This document shows positions 656 through 50,394 of a stretch of 64,000 nucleotides of DNA, piece by piece. The number at the start of each line of letters is the position of its first letter. Position 1 is the first letter of the stretch. This DNA comes from an uncultured Candidatus Saccharibacteria bacterium. Its GTDB lineage: Bacteria > Patescibacteriota > Minisyncoccia > Phycocordibacterales > UBA9973. A program made the translations under genes and the position numbers. The stretch is taken from positions 1,730 to 65,729 of the forward strand of contig CAZUZL010000003.1 in NCBI GenBank assembly GCA_964625065.1, read 5' to 3'. Under the pieces are notes generated by a model. It was not told where the DNA came from and searched no databases. It saw only the letters and a list, made by a program, of their open reading frames with translations.

Positions 656-656
656 A

Positions 657-702
657 CCCCCTCCGCCCTGTCGGGCACCTCCCCCTTATCAAGGGGAGGA
701 AA
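657..702. repeat. GC-rich palindromic mini-element, family A copy 1 (ACCCC..CTCCG..CACCTCCCCCTTATCAAGGGGAGGA)
   Basis: Lies directly after the stop codon. It has a 7-bp CCTCCCC/GGGGAGG stem with a CTTATCAA loop. A near-identical copy is at 45091-45134. Confidence 0.6.
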
Positions 703-4428: not shown

Positions 4429-5322
4429 TATTTTTTGTAATTTATTTAAAAAAGTATTTATAACATCTTTGTTTGGATCTATCCATATACCCAATTCTCG
4501 AGATTTTTTGTAGGGTGTTTCAATCTCAATTTCTGTCGAGCATCTTTTAGAGGGGTACCATGTTCCACAATAAATTGTGCTATCAATAAAAGCAATGTTT
4601 GTGTGTAAGCGATCAGGTTTTTTATCTGAAAAGGTTACTTCTACGTTACCAAAGGAACCGAAATTATTTTCTTTGTATTTCGGAGATAGAATAAATTTTA
4701 TAGGTATTTTTGTAGAAATATCTCGGAAATCACCCATAATTTTGCATTCTTTGCTGCATGATTTAAAGTAACAAATAATAGAATTTGCTTCATGCATATG
4801 TGATTTCCACATCTCGTTAATTGTATCAATCTTAGTTTTTGGGTCGCGGATCACGATGCCTAATTTCAGTAGTTCAACAGATTCATTTTTTGATATAAAT
4901 TCTTTAGACAACATCATTGCGATATTGCTGTTTTGTATTTTAACCATAGTGTCGTAAGGATTTTGTTGGTTAAACTTTTCTTGAAGGGACGTTGTAAATA
5001 TATAAACAAATAAATTATCGATGATTATATATTTTGAATGTAAACGGTATTCAGATATCATTTTGTACTTAGTAAATAATGTCTTTTTCGGTAAAACAAT
5101 TTCACCCTCAGTATATTTCTTCTCGTCAAAGATAATAGTTAGAGGTATTTTCTCGTCCACTTTATTTTCGATAGAAGTAATAATGTCAATATCAGACAAA
5201 CCTGATAATTCGCAATATATACTGGATTTTGCAGAATTTATTGCATCTAAAATATCCTGCTTAATTTCTTTGTATTGCAAGATGGCAACAGATTTTATAT
5301 GAGGATATTTTTCCATAATCAT
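4426..5322 (-). CDS. Phospholipase D-family (HKD) nuclease or phosphodiesterase-like protein
   Basis: HSKYIIIDN is a canonical HxK(x4)D motif. A second, degenerate motif is LHTNIAFIDSTIYCGTW. AT-rich. Confidence 0.65.
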   Translation of the reverse strand: MIMEKYPHIKSVAILQYKEIKQDILDAINSAKSSIYCELSGLSDIDIITSIENKVDEKIPLTIIFDEKKYTEGEIVLPKKTLFTKYKMISEYRLHSKYIIIDNLFVYIFTTSLQEKFNQQNPYDTMVKIQNSNIAMMLSKEFISKNESVELLKLGIVIRDPKTKIDTINEMWKSHMHEANSIICYFKSCSKECKIMGDFRDISTKIPIKFILSPKYKENNFGSFGNVEVTFSDKKPDRLHTNIAFIDSTIYCGTWYPSKRCSTEIEIETPYKKSRELGIWIDPNKDVINTFLNKLQKI

Positions 5323-5490
5323 TATATATTTTTTACTAATAGGGATATAGACGGGGATAATTAGAAATTTCTTGGGGTCCCGGATATTTCCTTCGTCAGT
5401 TAAGTCGGGAATTGGTCACAAATAAATTTTCAGGAGAAAATTTTTCGCGACCCCGACTCGCCGACCCGAAGGGTGCCCCGGCTCCGTCTT

Positions 5491-5520: not shown

Positions 5521-5557
5521 AGTCGTCCAATGTTACACATAGTCCTCGTTATTTTTG

Positions 5558-5630
5558 GGTGCCTATCGGGAATTGAACCCGAATCGAGGGTTCCACAAAC
5601 CCCAGTGTTAACCATTACACCATAGGCACC
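5558..5630 (-). tRNA. tRNA-His (anticodon GTG)
   Basis: Manual fold: an 8-bp acceptor including G-1:C73, a GTGT/ACAC D-stem with a GG loop, a GGGGT/ACCCT anticodon stem with loop TTGTGGA, and a TTCAATT T-loop. CCA is not fully encoded. Confidence 0.85.
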
Positions 5631-16974: not shown

Positions 16975-17022
16975 TTAATCTCCTCCTTGTGGAGGAGGAG
17001 TCCCCGCAGGGGGAGGTGGTGA
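16975..17022. repeat. GC-rich double-hairpin mini-element, family B copy 1
   Basis: TTAATCTCCTCCTTGTGGAGGAGGAGTCCCCGCAGGGGGAGGTGGTGA. A second copy is at 50347-50394 with about 85% identity. Confidence 0.6.
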
Positions 17023-18611: not shown

Positions 18612-18621
18612 GGGGGGGGGG
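18612..18621. repeat. G10/C10 homopolymeric tract at the avd 5' end, between the divergent avd and RT genes
   Basis: Ten consecutive G on the + strand; the avd start is out of frame across it. Confidence 0.7.
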
Positions 18622-20108: not shown

Positions 20109-20368
20109 GGAGGCCGAAGCCACTAATACATATAGTATACACTATGTATTATACAATGCAAGTTTATTTGTGGTTACGAATTATAATTAATATATTCACT
20201 ATAATATTCATACAATAAAGGGTCTACAGTGTGATGTTGCGTTGTTTTCTAGGGTATGATATAATACATGCATCAGGGGGCCTAGGGGGTCCAAAAAGGG
20301 CCCAAAAGGCCTTTTAAAATTGTAAAGAAAATTACAAAAATTTATAAGAATTAAATTAAGATTAAACC

Positions 20369-24928: not shown

Positions 24929-26659
24929 ATGATACGCGACATAATAACCAGTGCTGTACAGGGTGCCCTAGTTGGGGTGGGTATTTCTGATGCTGTTGTA
25001 CAACTTGAATTTCCAGCCAACAGTGCCCATGGCGACTTTGCTACAAACGTGGCTATGGTGTATGCAAAACAGTTGGGTAAAAACCCAAAAGTTTTTGCTG
25101 AAGAATTAGTTGGCATTTTAAAAACTAATTTGGAAGTTATCCCGCCCCCTGCGAAGGGGGAGGTGGCCGAAGGCCGGAGGGGGTTCATTTCTAATATTAC
25201 TATTGCCGGTCCTGGTTTTATAAACTTTTATGTTGCTGACGAATATTTTATAAAAAACTTGGCGGAAATTTCTGAAAATAAAAACTATGGCAACAGTAGT
25301 ATGTATGCAGGTAAAAAAATACTTGTCGAACATTCTAGTATAAATTTATTTAAACCTTTTCATATTGGTCATGTTATGAACAATGCCATTGGCGAATCTA
25401 TAAGTAGAATTGCTAAGGTCAGTGGGGCAGGTGTAACTGTTATTTCGTACCCATCAGACGTTTCACTTGGTATTGCCAAGGCTGTGTACATAATATTAGA
25501 AGATGGAATAGAAAAATTACAGTCATGTGTAACCGATACTGAAAAACTTGATTATATAGGTACATGCTATGTACGTGGTACAAAAGCATTTGAAGACAAC
25601 CCAGAAACACAAAATAGAATAAAAGAAATTGCAAAACACCTATACGAAAAAACACCTTCACCTGAACTGGATGCATATGAAATAGGTAAAGAAATAAACC
25701 TTACATATTTTAAAAACGTGGCCACACGCCTTGGTTCGCATTTTGATGCATACATATACGAATCTGAAGCAGGTGCTGTTGGTAGAAAAATAGTTATGGA
25801 CAATATTGGCCCAGTGTTTACCCAAAGCGAGGGTGCTGTTGTATACGAAGGCGAAAAAGAAGGTTTACATACACGTGTGTTTATAAACAGCGAAGGTTAC
25901 CCAACATACGAAGCCAAAGACTTGGGCCTATTGTCGTTGAAGTTTGAACGCTACACCCCTGACGTGTCTATATTTATAACCGACCACGAACAAACAGCAT
26001 ATTTTAATGTTGTTAAAAATGCTGCTGGTAAAATAAATAAAGAATGGGAACAAAAAACTGTACACCGTACACACGGACGTATGACATTCAAAGGTCAAAA
26101 AATGTCTTCACGTTTAGGTGGGGTACCTATTGCGTCTGTATTAGTAGACACTATTGTCGAAGAAGTTAAAGAAAAAAACAATACACTGGACGCAGTAACT
26201 TCAGATGCTATTGCTATAGGTGCATTAAAGTTCAGTATATTACGTGCACGTGCAGGTAGTAATGTAGACTTTGACCCAGAAACATCGTTATCGTTCGAAG
26301 GCGACAGTGGTCCGTACCTGCAGTACACAACAGTGCGTGCTAAATCTATATTAGAAAAAGCCAAACAACAAAATATAGTTGGTATGTTAAAAGAACAGGC
26401 GACTGCAAATGAACTTGAAAAACATTTGTCACGTTTTCCGTTTATTGTTGAAAAAAGCATATCTGAATGGGCACCACACTACATAACAGGGTATAGTGTA
26501 GAACTGGCACATTTGTTTAATGCCTGGTATGCAAATACTAAAATTCTTGGCGACGACGCACAACAAACACAACATAATGTTTTTATCACAGACACAGTGG
26601 TTAAAGTCTTAGAAAAAAGTATAAACCTACTGGGTATATCAGTGCCAGAGAAAATGTAA
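24929..26659 (+). CDS. argS: Arginine--tRNA ligase
   Basis: Class I HIGH-like PFHIGHVMN, an MSK-like QKMSSRLGG, and a DALK-type anticodon-binding C-terminus. Confidence 0.85.
   Translation: MIRDIITSAVQGALVGVGISDAVVQLEFPANSAHGDFATNVAMVYAKQLGKNPKVFAEELVGILKTNLEVIPPPAKGEVAEGRRGFISNITIAGPGFINFYVADEYFIKNLAEISENKNYGNSSMYAGKKILVEHSSINLFKPFHIGHVMNNAIGESISRIAKVSGAGVTVISYPSDVSLGIAKAVYIILEDGIEKLQSCVTDTEKLDYIGTCYVRGTKAFEDNPETQNRIKEIAKHLYEKTPSPELDAYEIGKEINLTYFKNVATRLGSHFDAYIYESEAGAVGRKIVMDNIGPVFTQSEGAVVYEGEKEGLHTRVFINSEGYPTYEAKDLGLLSLKFERYTPDVSIFITDHEQTAYFNVVKNAAGKINKEWEQKTVHRTHGRMTFKGQKMSSRLGGVPIASVLVDTIVEEVKEKNNTLDAVTSDAIAIGALKFSILRARAGSNVDFDPETSLSFEGDSGPYLQYTTVRAKSILEKAKQQNIVGMLKEQATANELEKHLSRFPFIVEKSISEWAPHYITGYSVELAHLFNAWYANTKILGDDAQQTQHNVFITDTVVKVLEKSINLLGISVPEKM
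25141..25190 (+). repeat. GC-rich palindromic mini-element inserted in frame inside argS
   Basis: CCCGCCCCCTGCGAAGGGGGAGGTGGCCGAAGGCCGGAGGGGG encodes PPPAKGEVAEGRRG. Local GC content is far above that of the surrounding gene. Confidence 0.55.
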
Positions 26660-29949: not shown

Positions 29950-30140
29950 TGTTTAAGTACAAGTTATAAACGGCCTTTTATAAGGGCATCACCGTTTAGT
30001 CCTGTATAAAAGGGCAGACTTTGGGAAGAACCGGCAACGGCGTAGAACCCATTAATTAAGAAGTAACTAAGGTGGTACCACGAGTAGAAACTCGTCCTTG
30101 GAAGGCAACATTTGTTGTTTTCTGTGGACGAGTTTTTAAT
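29950..30140 (+). promoter_or_regulatory. Candidate T-box-like leader of ileS
   Basis: AAGGTGGTACCACGAG resembles the T-box AGGGTGGNACCGCG. A downstream hairpin (AAACTCGTCC...GGACGAGTTTTT) has a 5' arm that could instead pair with the ACGAGT of the T-box-like segment. Confidence 0.35.
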
Positions 30141-30150
30141 TTTTAAATAT

Positions 30151-33100
30151 ATGCAAAATACAAATAATCAAGAAAATTTAAATAAATCAGCAATATCATT
30201 TCGTGAAGAAGCGGTTTTAGAATTCTGGAAAGAAAATAATATTTTCAATAAGACTTTAGAAAAACCCACTGACGCAGGTGAATACGTTTTCTACGAAGGC
30301 CCACCAACTGCTAATGGTAAACCTGGTATACACCACCTTGAAGCGCGTTCGTTTAAGGACATTATTCCACGTTACAAAACTATGCGCGGGTACCATGTTA
30401 GTCGTAAGGGTGGCTGGGACACACACGGTCTACCAGTAGAACTACAAGTAGAAAAAATGCTTGGTTTAAAATCTAAAAAAGAAATAGAAGAATATGGCAT
30501 AGAGGCATTTAATAAAAAGTGTAAAGAAAGTGTATGGGACTATCTAGACATGTGGAACAGTTTTACTGCACGCATGGGCTACTGGGTAGACATGCAACGC
30601 CCGTATGTTACATACCAAAACAGTTACATCGAAGCCCTATGGGGTGTAGTTGGCCGTGCCAACGAACGTGGTTATTTGTATAAAGACTTCAAGGTTCTAC
30701 CTTGGTGTACACGTTGTGGCACAGCACTGTCTTCACACGAACTAAACCAGCCTGGTGCGTATAAAGATGTGAAGGATCTGTCTGTTTACGTAAAGTTTAA
30801 AATTGTTGGTGTAGAAAACGGGTACTTCGTGGCATGGACTACAACACCATGGACACTACCTGGTAACGTTGCTCTTGCAGTTGGTGCAGATATAGATTAT
30901 GTAGAGGCTAAGAAAGACAATGAAGTGCTTGTGGTTGCCAAAGAAAGAATTTCAGTATTAGGTGAAGGTTACGAAATAATAGCCGAACACAAGGGTAGTG
31001 AAATGGTTGATATGCAATACGAACCACTATACCCATACTTGTCTGAAATCTACCAGCAAACAGCAAACAGCTCAAACTTTGTAAATGCTTTTAAAGTTTA
31101 CGCAGCAGACTTTGTTACTACTACAGACGGTACAGGTATAGTACACACTGCTGTTATGTATGGTGCCGACGACTTTGACTTAGGTACAAAATACGAACTA
31201 CCAAAGTTCCACACTGTAAACGAAGAAGGTAAATTTATTTCAGGTACTGGTTTCCTTGAGGGTAGATATGTTAAAGAAGTAGACGACAAGGGTAAACCCA
31301 CATTGGCAGTGGATATAATAGACGAACTAACTGCACGTGGTTTGTTGTTTAAAAAAGAAAACCACATGCACAGTTACCCACACTGTTGGCGTTGCGACAC
31401 ACCACTACTGTACTACGCACGTTCGTCTTGGTATTTCCGTATGTCTGCATTACGCCAGCAACTATTAGATGCAAATGAAAACATAAATTGGGAACCAGAC
31501 CATATAAAGGAAGGTCGTTTTGGCGAATGGCTAGACGGTATACGCGACTGGGCACTGTCACGCGACAGGTACTGGGGTACACCACTACCAATATGGCAAA
31601 AGTCTGACGGTGGTTATGTTGTTGTCGATTCGTTAGATAAATTAAAAAAACATACACAGACTTCTGGTAATAAATACTATGTTATGCGCCATGGTTTAAC
31701 ACACCACAACGTTGCCGGTACTTGGTCTTGTAATGTAGATAGTAAAGACGGTTTGAATGACACAGGTATAGAACAAGTTAAACAGTCTGCGTCAGCACAT
31801 ACAGATAAAAAAATAGACCTTATAATAGCGTCACCGTTTTACCGTACATTAGAAACTGCAAAAATTGCAGCTGGTGTTTTAGGTCTAAATGAATCTGACA
31901 TTGTTACCGACGCACGTTTAGGTGAATGGAATGTAGGTAGCGAATTTGACGGTAAACTAATAGAAGACTATTTTAAAGTTCGTAACGCCCAGGCTGATAG
32001 ATATAACTTTAAAACAGCCGGTGGTGAATCCTATGCCGACGTATTAGTACGTGCAGGTGCATTTATGTACGATATTGAAAATAAATACAAAGGTAAAAAT
32101 ATATTAATTGTTTCCCATGGTGCACCGACACGTGCCATAGAACTAGTTACTGCAGGGTACACATTAGACACATTGTTCGACGTAACACGAAGTTACAAAA
32201 ACTTTGATAATGCAGAAATACGCAAAGTAAACTTTGTACCACTTCCGCATAATGAAAACTTTGAACTAGATTTCCATAAACCATTTATAGACAATGTAGA
32301 ACTAGTAGATGAATCCGGAAACAAAATGGTTCGAACAAAAGAAGTTATGGACGTATGGTTCGACTCTGGGTCTATGCCATATGCCCAGTCACACAAACTA
32401 GGTGAAGTTATGGATTTTAATCCAGCTCCAGCCGACTACATTTCTGAAGCTATAGACCAAACACGTGGTTGGTTCTATACATTGCATGCAGTGTCTAATA
32501 TGCTGTCTGACGCGCCACGTAATGCATATAAAAATGTAATTTGTTTGGGCCATATACTAGACGCCCAAGGTTTAAAAATGTCTAAGTCAAAAGGTAACGT
32601 AGTAGACCCATGGACCATGTTCGACAAATACGGAGCCGACACAATACGCCTATGGATGTACAGTGTAAACCAACCAGGCGACAGTAAAAACTTCGACGAA
32701 AAAACCGTAGCTGAATTGCACGGTAAAGTGTTTACACTGCTAGATAACTGTTACAAGTTGTTTGAACTATATAAAGACAAAGACTATGTAATAGGTAACA
32801 CCAGTGTAAATGTACTAGACCAGTGGGTAGTTGCACGACTAAACCAACTAATTTCAGATTCTACAAAGTCTTTGGACGAATATAATATATTTAACCCAGT
32901 GCGTGCACTACGCGAATTTATTGCAGACTTTTCTACTTGGTATATACGTCGTTCACGCGACAGGTTCAAGTCAGACGATGTAGTTGTTTATGGTCCAGCC
33001 TTAGCAACTACACATTATGTATTTACCGAATTAGCAAAATTCATGGCTCCATTCGCGCCGTTCTATGCAGAAGATTTGTGGCAGAAAATACGCGACGAAA

Positions 33101-33624
33101 AAGATACTGTCTCCGTACATTTAGCTAACTGGCCGGATTCTCCCCTTGATAAGGGGGAGCTAGAGGGGGTTTTAGAAAACATGCAAAAAATCCGCGACAT
33201 TTGTACCGAAGGTAATGCTTTGCGTAAAAAGTCTACAATACCAGTACGCCAGCCATTGTTGTCTATAACAGTTGTAAATCAAAATTTAGATAATGAATAT
33301 GAAGAAATAATAAAAGACGAACTTAATATCAAACAAGTTTTTTATGGCGCTGAATTTATATTAGACACTGACATAACACCAGAACTAAAAACTGAAGGTA
33401 ACTACCGCGAACTTGTTCGTGCATTACAAGACATGCGTAAAGACATGGGCCTAACACCCGACGAAATAGTTAGTCTAAAAATTTCTGAAAATGCAAAAGA
33501 CCTAATAGTAAAATTTGAAACAGATTTGAAAAAAACTGTTGGCGTAAATACCATTGTATTTACAGACGGGGAAGTGGATACAGCAATAGGCACAGAAATG
33601 TATAAAGTAAGTATAGAAAAATAG
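30151..33624 (+). CDS. ileS: Isoleucine--tRNA ligase carrying an inserted histidine-phosphatase (PGM-like) domain
   Basis: HIGH (GIHHL), CP1 editing region, WALSRDRYWGTPLPIW, KMSKS (KMSKSKGN). Between PIWQKSDGGYVVVD and DVWFDSGS lie about 230 extra residues with RHG...SHG motifs. Confidence 0.9.
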   Translation: MQNTNNQENLNKSAISFREEAVLEFWKENNIFNKTLEKPTDAGEYVFYEGPPTANGKPGIHHLEARSFKDIIPRYKTMRGYHVSRKGGWDTHGLPVELQVEKMLGLKSKKEIEEYGIEAFNKKCKESVWDYLDMWNSFTARMGYWVDMQRPYVTYQNSYIEALWGVVGRANERGYLYKDFKVLPWCTRCGTALSSHELNQPGAYKDVKDLSVYVKFKIVGVENGYFVAWTTTPWTLPGNVALAVGADIDYVEAKKDNEVLVVAKERISVLGEGYEIIAEHKGSEMVDMQYEPLYPYLSEIYQQTANSSNFVNAFKVYAADFVTTTDGTGIVHTAVMYGADDFDLGTKYELPKFHTVNEEGKFISGTGFLEGRYVKEVDDKGKPTLAVDIIDELTARGLLFKKENHMHSYPHCWRCDTPLLYYARSSWYFRMSALRQQLLDANENINWEPDHIKEGRFGEWLDGIRDWALSRDRYWGTPLPIWQKSDGGYVVVDSLDKLKKHTQTSGNKYYVMRHGLTHHNVAGTWSCNVDSKDGLNDTGIEQVKQSASAHTDKKIDLIIASPFYRTLETAKIAAGVLGLNESDIVTDARLGEWNVGSEFDGKLIEDYFKVRNAQADRYNFKTAGGESYADVLVRAGAFMYDIENKYKGKNILIVSHGAPTRAIELVTAGYTLDTLFDVTRSYKNFDNAEIRKVNFVPLPHNENFELDFHKPFIDNVELVDESGNKMVRTKEVMDVWFDSGSMPYAQSHKLGEVMDFNPAPADYISEAIDQTRGWFYTLHAVSNMLSDAPRNAYKNVICLGHILDAQGLKMSKSKGNVVDPWTMFDKYGADTIRLWMYSVNQPGDSKNFDEKTVAELHGKVFTLLDNCYKLFELYKDKDYVIGNTSVNVLDQWVVARLNQLISDSTKSLDEYNIFNPVRALREFIADFSTWYIRRSRDRFKSDDVVVYGPALATTHYVFTELAKFMAPFAPFYAEDLWQKIRDEKDTVSVHLANWPDSPLDKGELEGVLENMQKIRDICTEGNALRKKSTIPVRQPLLSITVVNQNLDNEYEEIIKDELNIKQVFYGAEFILDTDITPELKTEGNYRELVRALQDMRKDMGLTPDEIVSLKISENAKDLIVKFETDLKKTVGVNTIVFTDGEVDTAIGTEMYKVSIEK
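33136..33172 (+). repeat. GC-rich palindromic mini-element (family A, inverted) in frame inside ileS
   Basis: TCCCCTTGATAAGGGGGAGCTAGAGGGGG is the reverse complement of the family A core CCTCCCCCTTATCAAGGGGAGG. It encodes SPLDKGELEG. Confidence 0.55.
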
Positions 33625-43656: not shown

Positions 43657-43721
43657 ACCTCACCCCAAGTGCTTTGCACTTCACCCCTCTCCTACGTAGG
43701 AGAGGGGGCCGGGGGTGAGGT
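43657..43721 (+). repeat. Compound GC-rich structured element or terminator
   Basis: A 9-bp outer stem (CCTCACCCC / GGGGTGAGG) encloses two hairpins (AAGTGC-TTT-GCACTT and CCCCTCTCC-TACGTA-GGAGAGGGG). Confidence 0.55.
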
Positions 43722-45090: not shown

Positions 45091-45134
45091 AAACCCCTCC
45101 GTCTTTCAGACACCTCCCCTTATCAAGGGAGGAA
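45091..45134. repeat. GC-rich palindromic mini-element, family A copy 2
   Basis: AAACCCCTCCGTCTTTCAGACACCTCCCCTTATCAAGGGAGGAAAA lies directly after the rpsR stop. Compare the copy at 657-702. Confidence 0.6.
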
Positions 45135-45172: not shown

Positions 45173-45236
45173 TTTTGTTGTTGTTCCCTCGCCCTGCTAA
45201 GGGGAGGGTTAGGGAGAGGTGCGCGAGTTTTCGCGT

Positions 45237-50346: not shown

Positions 50347-50394
50347 TTAATCTCCTCCTTGTTGAGGAGGAGTGGCCGTAGGCCGAGGTGGTGA
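50347..50394. repeat. GC-rich double-hairpin mini-element, family B copy 2
   Basis: TTAATCTCCTCCTTGTTGAGGAGGAGTGGCCGTAGGCCGAGGTGGTGA; compare the copy at 16975-17022. Confidence 0.6.

Follow-up and report, generated by a model that had tools for sequence, protein, structure and literature searches.

The 64,000 nucleotides analysed here (the window; positions 1,730 to 65,729 of contig CAZUZL010000003.1, from an uncultured Candidatus Saccharibacteria bacterium) have a G+C content of 37.7% and include argS and ileS, two tRNA synthetase genes that each contain a short, G+C-rich segment in frame. A reading of the letters alone, hereafter the sequence-only reading, had described these segments as palindromic mini-elements inserted into conserved genes. 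The segments are real and, as judged from shuffles, not due to chance; the local G+C is 0.80 in the argS copy and 0.61 in the ileS copy against 0.38-0.39 for both genes. Our analysis indicates that they are probably copies of a short, dispersed triplex-motif (TM) repeat of the BoxC/PIT type, which is present at least nine times in the window. The two genes and their motif copies are arranged as follows.

24929..26659, + strand: argS, arginine-tRNA ligase, 576 amino acids (Pfam and homology).
25141..25184, + strand: argS copy, long form; reads CCCGCCCCCTGCGAAGGGGGAGGTGGCCGAAGGCCGGAGGGGGT and encodes IPPPAKGEVAEGRRGF, ArgS residues 71-86.
25142-25163, 5' parts of the argS copy: pyrimidine arm 25142-25150 (CCGCCCCCT, one mismatch), loop 1 25151-25154, first purine arm 25155-25163 (AGGGGGAGG).
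25165-25183, 3' parts of the argS copy: nested hairpin of loop 2 25165-25175 (GGCCGAAGGCC), second purine arm 25176-25183 (GGAGGGGG).
30151..33624, + strand: ileS, isoleucine-tRNA ligase, 1157 amino acids from an ATG (Pfam, homology); the listed open reading frame (ORF) starts at a TTG at 30112.
33140..33170, + strand: ileS copy, short form; reads CTCCCCTTGATAAGGGGGAGCTAGAGGGGGT and encodes SPLDKGELEG, residues 997-1007 counted from the ATG at 30151.
33140-33169, parts of the ileS copy: pyrimidine arm 33140-33147 (CTCCCCTT), loop GAT, first purine arm 33151-33159 (AAGGGGGAG), loop CTA, second purine arm 33163-33169 (GAGGGGG).

As the sequence-only reading had recognised, the two copies have one orientation (+ strand) and carry the GAGGGGG core; they also share a reading phase, with AAG GGG GAG read as K-G-E. 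The description as palindromes, in contrast, misses the arm that defines the element. Each copy runs from a pyrimidine arm (Y, CCTCCCCTT) through a loop of 3-4 bases to a first purine arm (R1, AAGGGGGAGG), and from there through a second loop to a second purine arm (R2, GGAGGGGG). Alignment of the copies reveals R2 as the mirror image of R1, as distinct from a direct or inverted repeat, so that the element is a hairpin followed by a mirror-repeated purine arm. The core arms are CTCCCCCTT (Y), AAGGGGGAG (R1) and GAGGGGG (R2), the family consensus is (c/t)CTCCCCCTT-N3-AAGGGGGAG(g/a)-TTA/CTA-(g/a)GAGGGGGT, and the argS and ileS copies span 31-44 bases.

A pyrimidine arm followed by two purine arms in mirror order (Y-R-R) defines a class II (purine-motif) intrastrand triplex motif. 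The Y arm would pair with R1 by Watson-Crick bonds, and R2 could occupy the major groove of the resulting stem as G·G-C and A/T·A-T triads. In a sub-family with CTCCTCC as the Y arm, R2 carries T in place of A (GAGGTGG opposite GGAGGAG), a substitution allowed by the purine-motif rules. With 8/9 + 3 + 9 + 3 + 7 bases, the ileS copy fits the arm and loop lengths of the class, and arms of 9-11 bases with a 3-base loop 2 are found in 83 of 112 copies in the species scan described below (all counts from that scan are among the matches listed). The argS copy and two intergenic copies (at 656 and 45093) depart from the class in the length of loop 2, owing to small nested hairpins (GGCCGAAGGCC, GCCCGACAGGGC and GTCTGAAAGAC, respectively) whose stems differ in sequence and are all paired. 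Many further copies, also beyond the window, have such an additional hairpin, and long forms with a self-contained loop-2 hairpin are present in several phyla; this feature is consistent with a need to keep both ends of the loop close to each other. In single-stranded DNA (ssDNA) folds of each window copy, computed with ViennaRNA, which does not model triplexes, the first hairpin forms and the 3' G-rich arm stays unpaired, with a second hairpin added in the long forms.

A generic finder for the Y-R-R architecture, in which only a Y arm, its complement and the mirror of that complement are specified and no arm sequence is set, returned seven loci in the window at its strict setting and none in 40 dinucleotide shuffles. 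A looser setting, outside that shuffle comparison, returned nine loci including the argS copy. The R1 core AAGGGGGAG occurs three times where 0.17 occurrences are expected. Chance and base composition were considered as the source of the motifs and are ruled out by the shuffles and the expected counts. Only two of the nine copies, those in argS and ileS, are inside genes; the others, more numerous than the sequence-only reading had listed, are given here.

656..699, - strand: intergenic long form ("family A"); Y 691-699, R1 678-687, loop-2 hairpin 665-676 (GCCCGACAGGGC), R2 657-664.
16979..17020, + strand: second sub-family, CTCCTCCTT GTG GAGGAGGAG, nested hairpin, GAGGTGG; 4 bases past the stop codon of a SIMPL-family gene.
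43657..43721, both strands: palindromic double TM, one motif per strand with the common hairpin CCCCTCTCC TACGTA GGAGAGGGG; between tatD and rpsF.
45093..45132, - strand: intergenic long form, CCTCCCTTGATAAGGGGAGGTG-GTCTGAAAGAC-GGAGGGG; between the convergent ssb and efp; loop-2 stem different, still paired.
45186..45219, + strand: degenerate BoxC-like TM, CCCTCGCCC TGCTAA GGGGAGGG TTA GGGAGAGG; same ssb/efp spacer.
50352..50392, + strand: second sub-family, CTCCTCCTT GTT GAGGAGGAG TG GCCGTAGGC C GAGGTGG; spacer upstream of ftsK.

The ileS copy and the reverse complement of 656-699 share 20 consecutive identical bases (CTCCCCTTGATAAGGGGGAG), which bears out the proposed kinship of the ileS segment with the intergenic family A; these two and the argS copy belong to one dispersed family. 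The copies at 16979 and 50352 share a second set of arms, CTCCTCC/GGAGGAG/GAGGTGG. The double motif at 43657-43721 has an ssDNA fold of -26.8 kcal/mol (z = -7.7). A degenerate relative of it (CCCCTCGC…GGAGAGGGGTCGGGGGTGAGGT) is present downstream of the SIMPL gene at about 4760-4800 of the syntenic locus L001, a locus in which the finder returned no TMs; counts of relatives with no motif are consequently lower bounds. A search of Rfam at the gathering threshold, covering the window and 18 motif-bearing loci, found tRNAs only and no RNA family over the element.

What could such repeats be, if not triplex motifs? Three intergenic copies abut stop codons, at distances of 1 base (656, past a pseudouridine synthase gene and upstream of rplS), 4 bases (16979) and 13 bases (43657), and a stable hairpin is found in all copies. 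Repetitive extragenic palindromic (REP) sequences and bacterial interspersed mosaic elements (BIMEs) are extragenic hairpin repeats of 20-40 bases with a GTAG or CGTC head, linked to genes for REP-associated tyrosine transposases (RAYTs), and REP elements stabilise upstream mRNA. One may thus consider the copies as REP-type repeats that act as RNA stem-loops, stabilising or terminating 3' ends, with an incidental third arm and accidental copies in genes. They do resemble REPs as short, hairpin-forming, dispersed repeats that often lie just downstream of genes. Unlike REPs, they possess the third, mirror arm, show no GTAG or CGTC head in any copy and occur inside genes as well; there is no T-run 3' of the motif, the orientation relative to transcription is mixed, and the E. 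coli PIT elements are without promoter or terminator activity (PMC4666352). The conservation of the third arm among species further speaks against this explanation.

We scanned one genome per species with the pattern CCCTTNNNAAGGGGGAG N2-24 GAGGGGG and recovered at least 119 stretches across many phyla, where we estimate that about 6 would arise by chance under uniform base composition. The matches include Gammaproteobacteria (Cellvibrio, Aeromonas, Photobacterium, Marinomonas, Psychrobacter), Cyanobacteria (Leptolyngbyaceae, Nostoc), Poribacteria, Planctomycetota, Prevotella, Ignavibacteria and many Patescibacteria. In 115 of 134 matches, the four bases 5' of the pattern, which it leaves unconstrained, are CTCC and complete a 9-bp stem. 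We then compared, in distinct matches with a gap of at least 5 bases, three further unconstrained positions: the base 5' of the stem, the base after R1 and the base before R2. These form the triads C/G/G, T/A/A or T/A/T in 52 of 64 distinct matches, whereas 10,000 permutations gave a mean of 13.1 and a maximum of 27. A mirror repeat can be neither produced nor maintained by Watson-Crick pairing or templated copying. Taken together, the mirror repeat and the three-way covariation make the strongest comparative case available for a constraint on the triple-stranded geometry, or on something that reads it. Since conservation extends to the third arm, which changes in step with the hairpin, and since Watson-Crick constraints cannot yield a mirror repeat, we regard the REP-type explanation as improbable.

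In some lineages the motif has company. The loci from Leptolyngbyaceae and Nostoc (L038, L040, L064, L072, L078, L095, L102, L108) share a conserved AAACTCCGGT preceding it, and those from Prevotella (L014, L091, L120) a conserved ATTCATCTGCGCA on its 3' side; judging from these flanks, the motif may there be embedded in a larger, lineage-specific repeat.

The closest described relative of the family is TMECO, also known as BoxC or PIT element, the G/C-rich class II intrastrand triplex motif of E. coli (Holder et al. 2015, PMC4666352, where Hoyne et al. 2000 is cited for such motifs in E. coli). TMECOs follow the pattern CCCTCNCCC N3-6 GGGNGAGGG N3 GGGNGAGGG, with loop 2 mostly TTA, and number 23 copies in strain MG1655, always intergenic, sometimes in inverted pairs, with no link to mobility genes and with raised local sequence variability between strains; G/C-rich class II motifs are also abundant in cyanobacteria and some other groups (PMC4666352). 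The present elements share with TMECO the Y-R-R order, arms of about 9 bases, a first loop of 3-6 bases and a 3-base second loop that is most often TTA (TTA or CTA in the window). They are likewise multi-copy and dispersed, in part as inverted pairs, without an associated mobility gene, and they show strong presence/absence and indel variation among close relatives. The arms themselves differ (CTCCCCCTT/AAGGGGGAG/GAGGGGG as opposed to CCCTCNCCC/GGGNGAGGG/GGGNGAGGG): the argS and ileS copies do not match the E. coli consensus, which only the copy at 45186-45219 approaches. While TMECO is reported as intergenic and proteobacterial, the present family extends over many phyla and is often found in frame in essential genes, especially in the Candidate Phyla Radiation (CPR), and many of its copies have the nested loop-2 hairpin.

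Other small repeats offer analogies of behaviour, without the mirror arm. We see the closest such analogue in the Rickettsia palindromic elements (RPEs), said to have been described by Ogata and colleagues in 2000 as plain palindromes of about 100-150 bp confined to Rickettsia. Like RPEs, the present repeats lie in frame in conserved genes of an AT-rich genome of small size, add translated segments to the protein surface and are variably present among relatives. The present elements differ from RPEs in their length (31-44 bases), their mirror third arm and the absence of any sequence similarity, and are neither of RPE size nor plain palindromes. The small dispersed repeats (SDRs) of Nostoc, reportedly the subject of a 2008 study by Elhai and colleagues, are said to be 21-27 bases long and to insert into other sequences, nested insertions included. 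Our motif is comparable as a very small structured repeat that inserts into other sequences and is also present in Nostoc and Leptolyngbyaceae, whereas SDRs belong to a cyanobacterial subgroup only, are defined by their hairpin and are not described in frame in conserved genes across phyla. Full-text literature searches with motif sequence strings returned nothing relevant, and we found no description in the searchable literature of gene-internal triplex motifs, of in-frame GC-rich or palindromic inserts in CPR genomes (Parcubacteria, Patescibacteria), or of the present sequence family, which may be listed in the ITxF database (Holder et al.). The repeat class is already known; what appears to be new is the arm sequence family, its presence in a CPR genome and its in-frame context in essential genes.

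Copies in genes are not restricted to the window. At the following loci of the species scan, the motif is in frame and flanked on either side by Pfam domains.

IleS: L117, Falkowbacteria.
AlaRS: L019, Minisyncoccia.
CysRS: L069.
U32 peptidase: L101, Magasanikbacteria, and L052, Brocadia.
Mur ligase: L010.
IMPDH: L114, Doudnabacteria.
KsgA: L118 and L121.
Xer-type integrase: L056.
GT1: L046.
FemAB: L025.
DegT: L028.
Wzy_C: L085.

The share of loci with the motif inside a gene is 15 of 33 for the CPR and 8 of 70 for other phyla (p = 2.5e-4). In addition, a scan of metagenomes with the 19-mer CCTTGATAAGGGGGAGGTG yielded 18 stretches in which the unconstrained 23 bases on the 3' side are nearly identical, CC[AG][AG]AGGCGGAGGGGGT. 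This unit lies in frame in CarB, UvrB, LepA, RecJ, KsgA and Fmt, in the last at two sites and in both orientations. Copies in genes use both orientations and every stop-free frame and thereby encode unrelated peptides (LPLxKGExEGV, SPPYQGGxxGG, TPSxSPLxRGR), from which we infer that the element acts at the level of DNA and is neither a selected peptide nor an RNA signal; the near-identity of units of 42-45 bases in unrelated genes suggests that it is copied to new sites.

Two observations were made on the side at these metagenomic loci. Many copies at L146-L161 (for example L154, L157 and L147) are double motifs, ACCCCCTCC-ttt-CCTCCCCCTT-GAT-AAGGGGGAGG-TG-hairpin-C-GGAGGGGGT, with a full TM on each strand as in the paired TMECOs of E. 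coli; their outer arms are also Watson-Crick complementary, and an extended cruciform is an alternative fold. In L155 (614-1648, - strand; JGI contig Ga0209212_1099483), a single ORF joins Formyl_trans_N of fmt to RecJ_OB exactly at the TM, and the sequence past the TM matches recJ of L146 and L150. The junction is either an assembly chimera across the repeat of about 55 bases or a real motif-mediated recombination.

Homologues of the ArgS in the window place the organism in the CPR class Paceibacteria/Minisyncoccia. The residues encoded by the TM, 71-86, lie inside Arg_tRNA_synt_N, which here spans 100 residues against 82 positions of the profile; the copy adds about 16 codons relative to the empty allele of L001 and falls in a gap when aligned to the solved ArgRS structure 6ao8. 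An AlphaFold2 model of ArgS (mean predicted local distance difference test score, pLDDT, 91.8) places a coil at 68-86 between a helix (53-67) and a strand (87-93), with pLDDT <50 at 76-82. The peptide is predicted by this model to form a disordered loop, in keeping with the surface loop that the sequence-only reading had considered likely. Relatives of 79-93% identity differ strongly from one another here, having at least five length variants or no insertion at all.

P0002, sister at 93% identity: empty.
P0007 / L001: empty.
L003: short-form TM.
L124: long form as in the window, with GTGGCCGAAGGCCGG in common.
L125: long form with extra codons.
L004: tandem pair of motifs.

More distant ArgS proteins of 55-58% identity (L164, L165, L166) have short-form TMs in the same loop and phase, and their own close relatives are without. 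Because near relatives of TM-bearing ArgS lack the motif, the site appears to gain and lose it repeatedly, or to swap alleles by recombination, a turnover reminiscent of the "instability" reported for TMECO loci.

A similar peptide recurs in distant Paceibacteria, in this very loop of ArgS. One might thus ask whether selection acts on the protein: a PLxKGE...G(R)G loop could serve tRNA synthetases, for instance in binding tRNA or a partner, and the likeness of the DNA would be secondary. The N-terminal domain of ArgRS is its tRNA-binding domain, and the G-run codons (AAG GGG GAG, AGG GGG) are intact while the upstream arm drifts. Set against this, the same DNA unit occurs between genes and in both orientations, uses any frame that is free of stops, yields unrelated peptides and is also present in functionally unrelated enzymes. 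The closest ArgS relatives do without the peptide, which is itself predicted to be disordered, and the uniform use of GGG for glycine in a genome of 38% G+C would be left unexplained. We consider selection for the peptide very unlikely as the source of the segments.

The copy in ileS belongs to the anticodon-binding domain, where it lies in a linker past the conserved SVHL.WP motif. This linker varies in length across 120 IleS homologues, none of which contains a TM-like peptide; a search with a C-terminal fragment as query returned only fragmentary and more distant proteins, which document the variable linker and include no closer alleles. Three syntenic relatives have an unrelated, AT-rich linker of 10 codons at the site. 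As the relatives' linker is unrelated and the 120 homologues are without the TM peptide, the ileS copy appears to be lineage-specific and to replace a 10-codon linker with a net gain of one codon. The proposal of lineage-specific insertions accordingly holds for argS, whose segment is missing from P0002 and P0007, but not in this form for ileS, where a linker appears to have been replaced.

In L004 (2554-5988), the corresponding ileS linker, KEQGLGSRGQ (AAA GAA CAG GGA CTA GGT TCT AGG GGT CAG), has DNA (…GGGACTAGGTTCTAGGGGT…) with a faint likeness to a degraded motif copy; should it be one, the site may have been occupied before the lineage of the window arose. A separate peculiarity of this IleS (gene 30151-33624) is a complete histidine-phosphatase domain, His_Phos_1 (PF00300), at residues 510-678 within the catalytic domain, with its RHG motif at "YYVMRHGLTHHN"; the insertion is kept in all syntenic Paceibacteria relatives examined (L001, L003, L004, L164, L165).

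How can a structured repeat reside in essential genes? Three equal arms and two 3-base loops give a canonical TM of 33, 36 or 39 bases, and 86 of 112 copies have a length that is a multiple of three. Since this share is alike inside genes (20 of 23) and elsewhere (50 of 69; p = 0.26), compatibility with the reading frame is largely intrinsic to the element. Selection as the sole cause of the multiple-of-three length is ruled out by the same proportion outside genes. The copies are indeed in frame, as the sequence-only reading had stressed, and no special mechanism for preserving the frame is needed for an element of 3 x arm + 3 + 3 bases. We infer that a TM survives in genes because its canonical length keeps the frame while selection keeps those copies that are stop-free and lie in tolerant loops. 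CPR genomes are gene-dense and leave few other places for a repeat.

A GC-rich structured insert within an essential gene of an AT-rich genome is also superficially similar to the GC-rich "byp" elements of Magnusiomyces mitochondrial genes, reportedly described by Lang and colleagues in 2014, and the segments might in principle be untranslated, bypassed by ribosomes or otherwise removed. All the gene copies examined keep the frame and contain no stop codon, the inserts are multiples of three, and no split or frame-broken genes were seen at motifs in 34 CPR loci with 39 CPR copies. Translational bypass is not needed, given that genes at the motifs are neither split nor frame-broken, and we judge it extremely improbable. 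Membership in the byp class was tested on the same grounds and rejected, all gene copies being in frame and stop-free.

With regard to the spread of the family, we tentatively favour, as a possibility short of even odds, a route of folding, stalling and short-patch ectopic templated repair. The G-rich strand would fold while transiently single-stranded at a fork or gap, the folded strand would stall synthesis, and short-patch repair templated ectopically by other copies would then generate new copies as well as indel variants like those at argS. Such a route would imply no enzyme encoded by the element.

The main alternative is a dedicated enzyme that acts in trans and is encoded elsewhere in the genome or by a phage; an HUH single-strand DNA transposase and a reverse transcriptase are examples. 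The element would then be a true non-autonomous transposon, dependent on its enzyme as REPs are on RAYTs. In favour of this, near-identical 42-45-base units are present in both orientations and across many unrelated genes, 20 viral contigs in IMG/VR carry the motif, and the same arm sequence over many phyla suggests a common recognition machinery. Yet no transposase-like gene stands beside any copy examined (among the listed neighbour genes and in 64 kb of this genome), no mobility genes are found near TMECO sites (Holder et al. 2015, PMC4666352), and no target-site duplications or defined ends were found. We consider a trans-acting enzyme somewhat unlikely. The notion of a mobile mini-element thus gains support from the near-identical copies in many unrelated genes and loses it from the want of target-site duplications and clean boundaries.

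Several observations weigh against a repeat that is maintained for its triplex structure and copied from site to site. The ssDNA folding energies of the argS (z = -0.76) and ileS (z = -1.15) copies are unremarkable relative to shuffles. Copies in argS with mismatches in the Y arm (CCGCCCCCT, CTCGCCCTT, CCGCTCCCTT) keep both purine arms intact, which is not expected of a strictly structure-selected element. TMECO adopts a triplex as an isolated single strand in vitro, but no in vivo dimethyl sulfate (DMS) footprint was seen in E. coli (PMC4666352). The covariation test counts matches from different species as independent, and genes at the scan loci were called from a stop-free frame and the flanking Pfam domains rather than from curated annotation. 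The argS insertion of the window is old, being orthologous with relatives' copies that have the loop-2 hairpin GTGGCCGAAGGCCGG in common, so that mobility is deduced from other loci. At argS, at ileS and in the 3' spacer of the SIMPL gene, occupied sites were compared with empty ones; no target-site duplication or clean junction could be seen, the flanks being too diverged or rearranged, and no associated enzyme was found at the copies examined.

Three further features of the window are recorded apart from the repeat. A 46-base G+C-rich segment at 5444-5489 (TTCGCGACCCCGACTCGCCGACCCGAAGGGTGCCCCGGCTCCGTCT), near tRNA-His (5557-5629, - strand), has no Rfam match at the gathering threshold and is not a TM. 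A run of ten Gs at 18612-18621 (GCGGGGGGGGGGT) lies amid overlapping predicted ORFs and could be prone to slippage. Upstream of secE-nusG, the conserved spacer at 20230-20320 contains a promoter-like TTGCGTTGTTTT..TAGGGTATGATATAAT followed by a G/C-rich CAGGGGGCCTAGGGGGTCCAAAAAGGGCCCAAAAGGCC; the promoter-like block is common to L001 (about 4830-4880) and L003 (1-60), the G/C-rich segment to L001.

BoxC/PIT-type motifs have been known since the 1990s and described as strictly intergenic, and their origin, spread and function are unsolved in the field. The related family reported here has the same sequence over many phyla, shows three-way covariation and lies repeatedly in frame in essential genes, and it provides comparative evidence of constraint on the third arm and, by extension, on the triplex geometry. 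For CPR proteins, the repeat explains odd, G-rich, low-complexity loops (PLxKGE.., SPPYQGG.., TPSxSPLxRGR) that, if their source is missed, could be taken for functional motifs or lead to mis-assembly; such loops should be treated as repeat-derived in annotation. In the argS genes of Paceibacteria, nature provides filled and empty alleles in which insertion junctions and turnover rates are measurable. We speculate, though we think it improbable, that the family represents a pan-bacterial, enzyme-independent selfish element of 33-45 bases, compatible with codons, whose triple-stranded fold, formed on transient single strands, drives its own copying through host repair. If this were true, the element would in gene-dense CPR genomes continue to supply essential proteins with new loops on a large scale and would promote recombination between genes, of which the fmt-motif-recJ junction of L155 may be an example.

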